IMG/VR virus record: IMGVR_UViG_2667527959_000006
Span: 1 to 11,176 of that record
Length of the DNA stretch: 11,176 bases
Strand: one strand, 5' to 3'
From: a virus
Lineage: Duplodnaviria > Heunggongvirae > Uroviricota > Caudoviricetes
Under the pieces are notes generated by a model, which was not told the DNA's origin, did not search any database, and saw nothing but the letters and a program-made list of their open reading frames with translations. Position numbers and translations under genes: made by a program. Shown here piece by piece: positions 7,956 through 8,992 of this stretch (positions are counted from its first letter, which is position 1; each line of letters begins with the position of its first letter).

Positions 7956-8022
7956 AAGTTCCCTCCTACGTTGTCAGGAGGTAATGGTATGCAAAGTAAC
8001 TTCTCAACCGGTCATTTGTTGC
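7956..8022 (-). promoter_or_regulatory. lydC-lydA intergenic region: candidate phage late promoter and an RBS-occluding hairpin
   Basis: Minus strand reads ...GAGAAGTTACTTTGCATACCATTACCTCCTGACAACGTAGGAGGGAACTTGTG. AAGTTACTT is a 9-bp inverted repeat (4-bp arms) centred about 11-12 bp upstream of a TANNNT-type hexamer TACCAT. CCUCCU can pair with the lydA Shine-Dalgarno AGGAGG (6-bp stem, 8-nt loop). Confidence 0.3.
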
Positions 8023-8304
8023 TTAAGAGGCATTTCTATTGAGGTACGAATCGATAATCCTTTGTAACTTTTCAAGAATGAGCCTGTTATTGATGCTGCA
8101 AATAATAGTCACGCAATTCTGAAGACTTTCATCCATACCCTTATATTCCGCGAAATACATGCCTATAAAGCCTGCAAGTACGGCAGCAATACACTCGGCC
8201 ATCAATTGCCTGCATGACGCTTCGTAACGTTTTTCACGAACCCCATTCAGAAACGAATGCACCCCGCCAAGGATGGAGAGGAGCATTATTGTGAAATCAA
8301 ACAT
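8023..8304 (-). CDS. lydC: Holin-like small membrane protein (93 aa), paralog of LydA
   Basis: ATG preceded by GAGGAA 6 nt upstream. Aligns with LydA over the hydrophobic core: LSILGGVHSFLNGVRE...AAVLAGFIG...VTIICS versus LSVIGGIGTFLMDVRD...VAVTAGAVA...VTIASN. The name is from the P1 map as I recall it. Confidence 0.65.
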   Translation of the reverse strand: MFDFTIMLLSILGGVHSFLNGVREKRYEASCRQLMAECIAAVLAGFIGMYFAEYKGMDESLQNCVTIICSINNRLILEKLQRIIDSYLNRNAS

Positions 8305-8431
8305 AACTATTTCCTCAATAGTGAATTAAATCTCATTGGGAAACGGTATGTACTTTGTGATTTCCACACATACTGGTTTTTGTTAATTAAAATCAGCAGC
8401 TTGCTATAAATAACGATAGTGAGCAGAAAAT
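8305..8431. promoter_or_regulatory. Divergent intergenic region between lydC (minus) and cin (plus); probable promoters for both
   Basis: 127-bp AT-rich spacer between divergent start codons. Contains TATAAA (8405-8410) with a weak -35-like TTAATT about 16 bp upstream as a cin promoter candidate, and a GGTATG...CATAC inverted repeat (8345-8372). No element is confidently assigned. Confidence 0.35.
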
Positions 8432-8992
8432 ATGCTAATAGGCTATGTACGCGTATCAACAAATGAACAAAACACTGCTTTACAACGAAATGCCCTTGAA
8501 AGCGCAGGATGTGAGCTAATTTTTGAGGACAAGGCGAGCGGCAAAAAGGCTGAACGCCCTGGGTTAAAAAAGGTTCTTCGTATGCTTTCCAGAGGTGACA
8601 CCCTGGTCGTATGGAAGTTAGATCGTCTTGGGCGCAGCATGCGTCACTTAGTTGTGCTGGTGGAAGAGCTGCGTGACAGAGGCATTAACTTCCGGAGTCT
8701 CACTGACTCCATCGACACCAGTACACCAATGGGGCGCTTTTTCTTTCACGTAATGGGGGCGCTGGCAGAAATGGAACGTGAACTTATTGTTGAACGTACA
8801 CGCGCTGGACTTGATGCAGCTCGCGCAGAAGGTCGAATAGGTGGGCGTCGGCCTAAATACCAGAAAGAAACATGGCAGCAAATGCGGCGATTGCTGGAGA
8901 AGGGCATCCCCCGTAAGCAGGTTGCAATCATCTATGATGTGGCTGTTTCCACTCTTTATAAGAAGTTTCCGGCGTCATCATTTCAATCCTAA
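8432..8992 (+). CDS. cin: Cin site-specific DNA invertase (Hin/Gin/Cin serine recombinase), 186 aa
   Basis: MLIGYVRVSTNEQNTALQRNAL... carries the catalytic Ser of the resolvase/invertase family near the N-terminus; the C-terminal GIPRKQVAIIYDVAVSTLYKK is a helix-turn-helix. Very close to Gin/Hin/Cin as I recall them, and located next to an invertible tail-fibre segment. Confidence 0.95.
   Translation: MLIGYVRVSTNEQNTALQRNALESAGCELIFEDKASGKKAERPGLKKVLRMLSRGDTLVVWKLDRLGRSMRHLVVLVEELRDRGINFRSLTDSIDTSTPMGRFFFHVMGALAEMERELIVERTRAGLDAARAEGRIGGRRPKYQKETWQQMRRLLEKGIPRKQVAIIYDVAVSTLYKKFPASSFQS

Follow-up and report, generated by a model that had tools for sequence, protein, structure and literature searches.

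Late promoters of the Lpa type in P1-like plasmid-prophages (the P1, JK004, and D6 lineages) may systematically be embedded in the 5′ arms of hairpins that occlude the Shine-Dalgarno (SD) sequence, or ribosome-binding site, of the first late gene. With such a design, late operons would be insulated from read-through transcription, both in the prophage state and early during infection, and would be translatable only from their own late start, and the holin gene lydA would be one instance of it, kept by compensatory evolution. We put the chances of this general rule at about even. The pattern across late promoters is a more interesting result than the lydA case, in which the late promoter LPdar overlaps an anti-SD (a sequence complementary to the SD) in front of the gene.

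The window, the whole stretch of 11,176 nucleotides that was analyzed, is identified by its sequence as phage P1. The region is 99% to 100% identical to P1, P7, SJ46, and hundreds of P1-like plasmids. Genes on the minus strand follow the order lydC (8304–8023), lydA (7955–7626), lydB, hdf, darA, ddrA, and ddrB, with a spacer of 67 bp between lydC and lydA; the plus strand carries cin, from 8432 onward. The genes of the lysis locus are as follows.

8023 to 8304, minus strand: lydC, a holin-like protein of 93 amino acids, in the same orientation as lydA and the source of read-through in the proposed model
7626 to 7955, minus strand: lydA, a holin of 109 amino acids with a GTG start, 99% to 100% identical to P1 LydA
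7186 to 7629, minus strand: lydB, an antiholin, overlapping the lydA stop codon (ATGA) and preceded by a strong SD of its own, GGGAGG

LydA begins with V-L-D-T-Q-E, and its next methionine is residue 27. In SJ46, lydA starts with ATG in place of GTG. The following elements of the late promoter and of two hairpins were located between the lydC stop codon and the beginning of lydA.

7994 to 8002, minus strand: the −22 box AAGTTACTT of LPdar, an Lpa-dependent activator box, annotated as “-22 signal” or “-22 region of LPdar” in AJ000741 and AF234172
7984 to 7989, minus strand: the −10 hexamer TACCAT of LPdar, of the TANNNT type, annotated as minus_10_signal in AJ000741 and AF234172
7975 to 7981, minus strand: the 5′ (anti-SD) arm CCUCCUG, in the discriminator/start region of LPdar, +3 to +9 after the −10
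7975 to 7977, minus strand: the LPdar start expected from promoter geometry, at the seventh to ninth nucleotide after the −10
7962 to 7968, minus strand: the 3′ arm UAGGAGG, which holds the lydA SD AGGAGG (7967–7962), 6 nt ahead of the GUG
7940 to 7958, minus strand: a second hairpin, CUUGUG/CACAGG, enclosing the GUG start (7955–7953) and present in both RNA isoforms

The original prediction had placed all of its elements correctly (AAGTTACTT at 8002–7994, TACCAT at 7989–7984, CCTCCT at 7981–7976, AGGAGG at 7967–7962, and GTG at 7955). It had proposed the box and the hexamer as a candidate late promoter. By the match of these bases to the −22 region and −10 in AJ000741 and AF234172, they are the already annotated promoter LPdar and no mere candidate; the call was right, and this half of it adds nothing new to the public records. 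AAGTTACTT is an inverted repeat (AAGT-T-ACTT, with 4-bp arms and one central base), and 4 nt (tgca, read on the minus strand) separate it from the hexamer. The suspected likeness to other P1 late promoters holds as well. LPdar shares the 9-bp box, the 4-bp spacer, the TANNNT −10, and the lack of a −35 with P1 late promoters, for which LPs (Ps) is the archetype, and as a promoter it shows no difference from them. Its box is identical to those of LPs and LPhot, and the geometry box(9)-N4-TANNNT (9+4+6) is common to 10 of the 11 annotated P1 late promoters, the exception being LPhot with a 9-bp spacer. The pattern AAGTKACTT-N4-TANNNT has a single match in the 11-kb window, at LPdar, with 0.07 expected when one mismatch is allowed, and a sigma-70 scan found no −35/−10 pair at LPdar. 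Transcription from P1 late promoters depends, according to published genetics, on Lpa and the host protein SspA. LPdar is annotated as the head of the lydA-lydB-hdf-darA-ddrA-ddrB late operon. The literature gives P1 11 late promoters, which share a conserved Lpa box of 9 bp, and counts lydA and lydB as late genes; late expression is stated in PMC9025707.

RNA folding (ViennaRNA) confirmed the predicted pairing of CCUCCU with the SD AGGAGG, which is able to occlude the ribosome-binding site. The hairpin CCUCCUG-ACAACG-UAGGAGG consists of 7 pairs, the last of which is a G·U, around a loop of 6 nt (8 nt when only the 6 Watson-Crick pairs are counted). Folded alone, it has a z-score of −3.0 and a ΔG of −10.7 kcal/mol, a stability that was reached by 1 in 200 dinucleotide shuffles; in a 51-nt context, ΔG is −15.4 and z is −2.57. 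The predicted binding of the lydA SD to the anti-SD of 16S rRNA is −10.7 kcal/mol. The hairpin is thus real, with its place and its stability shown, and neither it nor its overlap with the promoter is annotated in the P1 and P7 records examined. Rfam 15 covariance models gave no match at E ≤ 1 in 7500–8500. The arms of the second hairpin (CUUGUG/CACAGG) are identical in a Salmonella plasmid relative and partly kept in Cronobacter phage JK004.

Promoter geometry places the late start inside or just past the 5′ arm. With the center of the box (7998) at −22, +1 would fall on 7976; with the hexamer at −12 to −7, it would fall on 7977; and the preference for a pyrimidine at −1 and a purine at +1 points to G7975. 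The sigma-70 holoenzyme starts transcription 6 to 9 nt after the −10. With a start at 7977–7975, transcripts from LPdar would leave out four or more of the six anti-SD bases (7981–7978), and at most three weak pairs would be possible in late RNA. An RNA starting at 7977 showed no significant structure (z of −0.8 to −1.0). A start at 7979–7978, or 5 to 6 nt after the −10, would leave 4 to 5 pairs, the arm at LPdar being the closest to +1 of all the cases described here.

These positions bear on the mechanism that the original prediction had put forward, in which the hairpin in the late LPdar mRNA throttles translation of the holin and thereby sets its dose and the timing of lysis. Such a role would fit the stable hairpin over the whole SD, the use of a GUG start with a second hairpin over it, the dose sensitivity of holins, and the 4 to 5 pairs that would remain with a start 5 to 6 nt after the −10. 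However, whether the start lies 6 to 9 nt after the −10 or is set to 7976 by the −22 box, bases 7981–7978 precede it either way, and at 2 other late promoters (LPsit and the LPs orthologue of JK004) the arm includes the −10, so that equivalent hairpins are impossible in late RNA. Tuning of holin translation on the late transcript is thus quite unlikely. The expected start comes close to the outcome that the prediction itself had named as refuting it, a start downstream of the arm with no alternative 5′ end, except that an upstream 5′ end is plausible in the form of lydC transcripts. The part of the prediction that probably survives is translational control itself, acting on read-through RNA instead of the late mRNA.

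The best-supported model is insulation of LydA translation from read-through RNA in the manner of T4 gene e, a reading with an even chance of being correct, in which we infer the start site, the read-through RNA, and the translational effect. The lydC-lydA spacer would act through LPdar, which overlaps the 5′ arm of a hairpin whose 3′ arm is the lydA SD. RNA started upstream, at the lydC promoter or by stray transcription of the prophage, would carry both arms and would fold into the −10.7 kcal/mol hairpin once the SD is made, preventing initiation of LydA. Late in infection, Lpa and host RNA polymerase would start at about 7977–7975, inside or after the 5′ arm, and the resulting mRNA would lack the anti-SD, expose the strong SD, and be translated into LydA. 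As an outcome, the lethal lysis protein would not be produced from early or prophage read-through RNA.

For T4 gene e (lysozyme), long early transcripts fold a hairpin that sequesters the SD, and a late promoter lies within the DNA for the 5′ strand of this hairpin, giving late RNA that lacks the strand and is translated; the same design has been documented for soc, 49, and I-TevI (PMC3014915). Both systems thus join a lysis gene with an SD hairpin to a late promoter overlapping the 5′ strand. T4, however, uses gp55-type late promoters (TATAAATA), with mapped 5′ ends and a measured repression of about 100-fold, whereas the P1 promoters are of the sigma-70/Lpa type and the design there is a predicted one. 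Unlike in T4, the stem in P1 has only 7 bp, the expected +1 falls within its arm, and the protected gene is a holin behind a holin-like gene rather than a lysozyme.

Likenesses to two other systems are more partial. The leader of the lambda holin gene S also contains an RNA stem-loop, sdi, which reaches into the ribosome-binding region and bears on the timing of lysis, but it chooses between two starts two codons apart. A dual-start leader was considered for lydA and rejected, as no second start codon precedes Met27, and the antiholin of P1 is a separate gene, lydB, rather than a product of a dual start as in lambda. In phage Mu, the ribosome-binding site of the late toxic gene mom is likewise locked in a hairpin, which the Com protein opens on the same transcript, whereas the choice of start site would avoid the hairpin for P1 lydA.

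The stability of the hairpin was also assessed in longer RNAs. It persisted in read-through contexts of 100 to 400 nt, with a probability of 0.00 to 0.14 that the SD is unpaired. When at least 56 nt of coding RNA is included, two further partners for the SD become available downstream, CUCCUGC (7916–7910) and GCUCC (7934–7930). With long coding context, opening of the SD at equilibrium costs about 9 to 11 kcal/mol in read-through RNA versus 8 to 10 in late RNA; because of the downstream CUCC partners, equilibrium accessibility therefore barely separates the isoforms. The argument from isoforms is therefore a kinetic one, in that the upstream arm is the first to be synthesized, and it also relies on the unfolding of coding RNA by ribosomes. 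The two downstream partners, of which CUCCUGC forms Ala-Leu-Leu codons, lie inside lydA on the minus strand and are usable by RNA that lacks the upstream arm.

Read-through from lydC would supply the long RNA in the gene e-like model. The lydC stop codon lies 42 nt before the 5′ arm, so that ribosomes terminating on lydC would be too far off to melt the hairpin, and a terminator scan found no terminator-like site between lydC and lydA (7956–8022). An intrinsic terminator was rejected, as the stem is followed by GAACUUGUG with no U-run. In the literature, lydC is a monocistronic unit for which an early promoter has been predicted (PMC9025707), and our promoter scan yielded one candidate for it.

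8432 to 8459, minus strand: sigma-70-like promoter candidate TTGATA-16-TAGCAT upstream of lydC, with the −35 conserved in P7

The annotation of P7 has a C1 operator, Op(lydC), a short way downstream of the lydC promoter region; no C1 operator was found upstream of lydC in the P1-type window within 3 mismatches. The candidate overlaps the start of cin, and P7 (locus L006, 196–212) has CAGCAT there, a weaker −10 than that of the P1-type window. A better −10 and no recognizable operator in the P1-type window raise the question whether lydC is repressed in P1 lysogens. In published RNA-seq of P1, lydA RNA is already raised at 10 min; fold changes are given for lydA and lydB, and lydC is unlisted.

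The position of the hairpin 42 nt past the lydC stop also suits a different reading, in which it marks the 3′ end of the lydC RNA as a terminator, processing site, or stabilizing stem-loop and has no part in lydA control. The description of lydC as monocistronic agrees with this, as does a true terminator upstream of the promoter at some distant lydA loci (L036, L045, L046, and L049). The stem, however, lacks a U-tract (GAACUUGUGCUU) and, at 7 bp, is too short to be an RNase III substrate, and the exact coincidence of the 3′ arm with the SD would be left unexplained. With these features and the empty terminator scan, we consider a role in lydC 3′-end formation highly improbable.

The pairing at lydA may also be a coincidence, a compositional by-product of a pyrimidine-rich −10-to-+1 stretch that happens to complement a purine-rich SD and has no selected function. 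This is the main rival to the gene e-like model, and we regard it as possible, if on balance doubtful. For an estimate of chance, the LPdar segment was paired with SD windows from about 110 further genes of P1. A Watson-Crick helix of 6 bp was found in 12% of these windows (23% when G·U pairs are counted), and the LPdar-SD duplex energy of −12.0 kcal/mol was equalled in 4.5%. LPdar alone thus gives p = 0.12 for the helix and p = 0.045 for the duplex energy, and since the arm is CU-rich, the match to a purine-rich SD could be partly compositional. By itself, the lydA hairpin is only mildly improbable, and the evidence for lydA alone is modest (p of about 0.05–0.12). Among 110 P1 genes, lydA ranks 9th for the opening energy of the ribosome-binding site and 16th for the long-minus-short difference in opening energy, and is an outlier in neither. 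In a strict test, which admitted no base from position 7 after the −10 onward, the LPdar arm was cut to CCUC and the signal was gone; the LPdar result therefore depends on the true +1. The frequency of 6-bp matches, the rank of lydA, and the two CUCC partners of the same SD in the coding region all favor coincidence, against which stand the z-score of the hairpin, the p-value for duplex energy, and the recurrence of the architecture at sibling late promoters.

At 3 further late promoters of P1, a segment is perfectly complementary to the SD region of the first downstream gene.

LPsit, 11 bp: 5′ arm CUCGUAGAAUC, spanning the spacer and the −10; 3′ arm on the SD, GAUUCUACGAG (AF234172, 46608–46626)
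LP23, 7 bp: 5′ arm CUCUUCC, directly after the −10; 3′ arm GGAAGAG (AF234172, 58825–58843)
LPpac, 7 bp: 5′ arm CUUUCGU, in the box end and spacer; 3′ arm ACGAAAG (AF234172, 90475–90493)

No stem-loop is annotated at any of these 3 promoters in the records compared (L003/L004). They are preceded by the co-oriented non-late genes simC, parB, and lpa, an association that was noticed after the fact and that is broken by LP26 of JK004. JK004 has a 14-bp helix at its LPs orthologue and a 6-bp helix at its LP26 orthologue. At LPsit and the JK004 LPs orthologue, the 5′ arm takes in the −10 hexamer itself, and those hairpins therefore cannot exist in late RNA.

Covariation was scored between P1 and either JK004 or the Salmonella plasmid and is clear at all 3 siblings. 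At LP23, 6 of the 7 pairs are kept despite 4 double substitutions. At LPsit, a G-C pair is replaced by A-U within the −10 hexamer, and at LPpac, U-A is replaced by G-C. For a test across promoters, each promoter segment was paired with its own (cognate) SD window, and the null was drawn from SD windows of about 110 other genes in P1; no single p-value can fall below about 0.009.

P1 late promoters (n = 11): Fisher combined p = 0.014 for the Watson-Crick helix and 0.058 for the duplex energy
JK004 late promoters (n = 7): Fisher combined p = 0.0017 for the Watson-Crick helix and 0.0029 for the duplex energy
D6 late promoters (n = 8): Fisher combined p = 0.031 for the Watson-Crick helix and 0.0035 for the duplex energy

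As a negative control, 25 annotated P1 sigma-70 promoters gave Fisher p = 0.9 (Watson-Crick helix) and 0.57 (duplex energy). The T4-like reading of the lydA hairpin draws support from these siblings, because they carry SD-complementary arms with compensatory changes. Mixed-sequence helices of 7 to 14 bp with such changes, and the absence of the architecture at the sigma-70 promoters, likewise argue against coincidence.

The late-promoter consensus of D6 differs, being AAATCACAnACT-N3-TAnnnT. Its promoter-embedded arms include those at R (CATACT followed by CUCCUU/AAGGAG) and prt (GCCGCAAA/UUUGCGGU). In D6 (MF356679; L140/L141), the consensus was seen upstream of lydA, R, pmgB, 23, prt, 26, 7, and orf16; it was also seen upstream of lydA in Enterobacter and Citrobacter plasmid-prophages.

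Variation at lydA itself is sparse. The block from the promoter to the GTG is invariant in 80 P1-type loci from IMG/VR except for three singletons, and 477 plasmid and 20 phage records also match the P1-type locus. This invariance of the block in Punavirus leaves room for coincidence; the sole natural variant at the arm (A7982 to C, in locus L098) speaks against it, as it gives a helix of 8 bp. In JK004 and the Salmonella plasmid, the closest relatives that diverge, the local lydA hairpin is missing, a further point in favor of coincidence. All that these two offer is a CU-rich, long-range partner lying upstream of the box, in which one change is compensatory and one disruptive. Other anti-SDs lie right after the −10 at more distant lydA loci, in Enterobacter (TAAGTT followed by CCCUUCUG, with CAGGAGGG as its partner) and in Citrobacter (ACCUUUC or ACCCUCU, with GGAGGGU as partner). 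Pooled lydA orthologues on their own gave a weak signal (Fisher p of 0.05–0.5). A scan of the genome collection with a three-sequence LydA alignment (P1, JK004, and the Salmonella plasmid) found one P1-like locus only.

If the mechanism holds, it would account for the survival of a plasmid prophage that carries a lethal holin gene 67 bp past a co-oriented gene with no terminator in between. The wider pattern, if true, would be an apparently undescribed general rule, by which a late promoter of a P1-like phage forms part of a hairpin concealing the ribosome-binding site of its first gene, and it would extend the classical mechanism of T4 gene e to temperate phages with sigma-70/activator-dependent promoters. 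Phagemid and transduction systems use late promoters and leaders of P1 for gene expression, and inclusion of the upstream arm would then decide how leaky such constructs are.

Several further observations were made at these loci. The overlap of lydB with the lydA stop codon (ATGA) and the GGGAGG lie within 7626–7641 on the minus strand; read-through RNA could give the antiholin LydB without the holin LydA, and the embedded-promoter design may also allow this. A mosaic junction lies at about 8010–8015 of the window, just upstream of LPdar, where at least 6 unrelated upstream contexts meet the invariant promoter-lydA block, among them P1-type lydC, a lydC of 90% identity, P7-type lydC, the tail-fibre gene U′, and others. 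Loci of the L065/L067 type in IMG/VR have an inverted repeat with 11 bp of perfect match, CATCCTCCACG...CGTGGAGGATG, which directly precedes the LPdar block and lies about 60 to 130 nt upstream of the lydA start. The terminators at the distant lydA loci L036, L045, L046, and L049 are strong and intrinsic (GC stem plus T-run) and stand immediately upstream of the late promoter; they could be another way to block read-through, and L045 is without any anti-SD arm. Finally, the pmgC orthologue of JK004 (gene_12; MZ188976, 12016–12058; L136) is annotated with a GTG start that is apparently 42 nt too far downstream, and an upstream ATG with a good SD lines up with the start of P1 pmgC.
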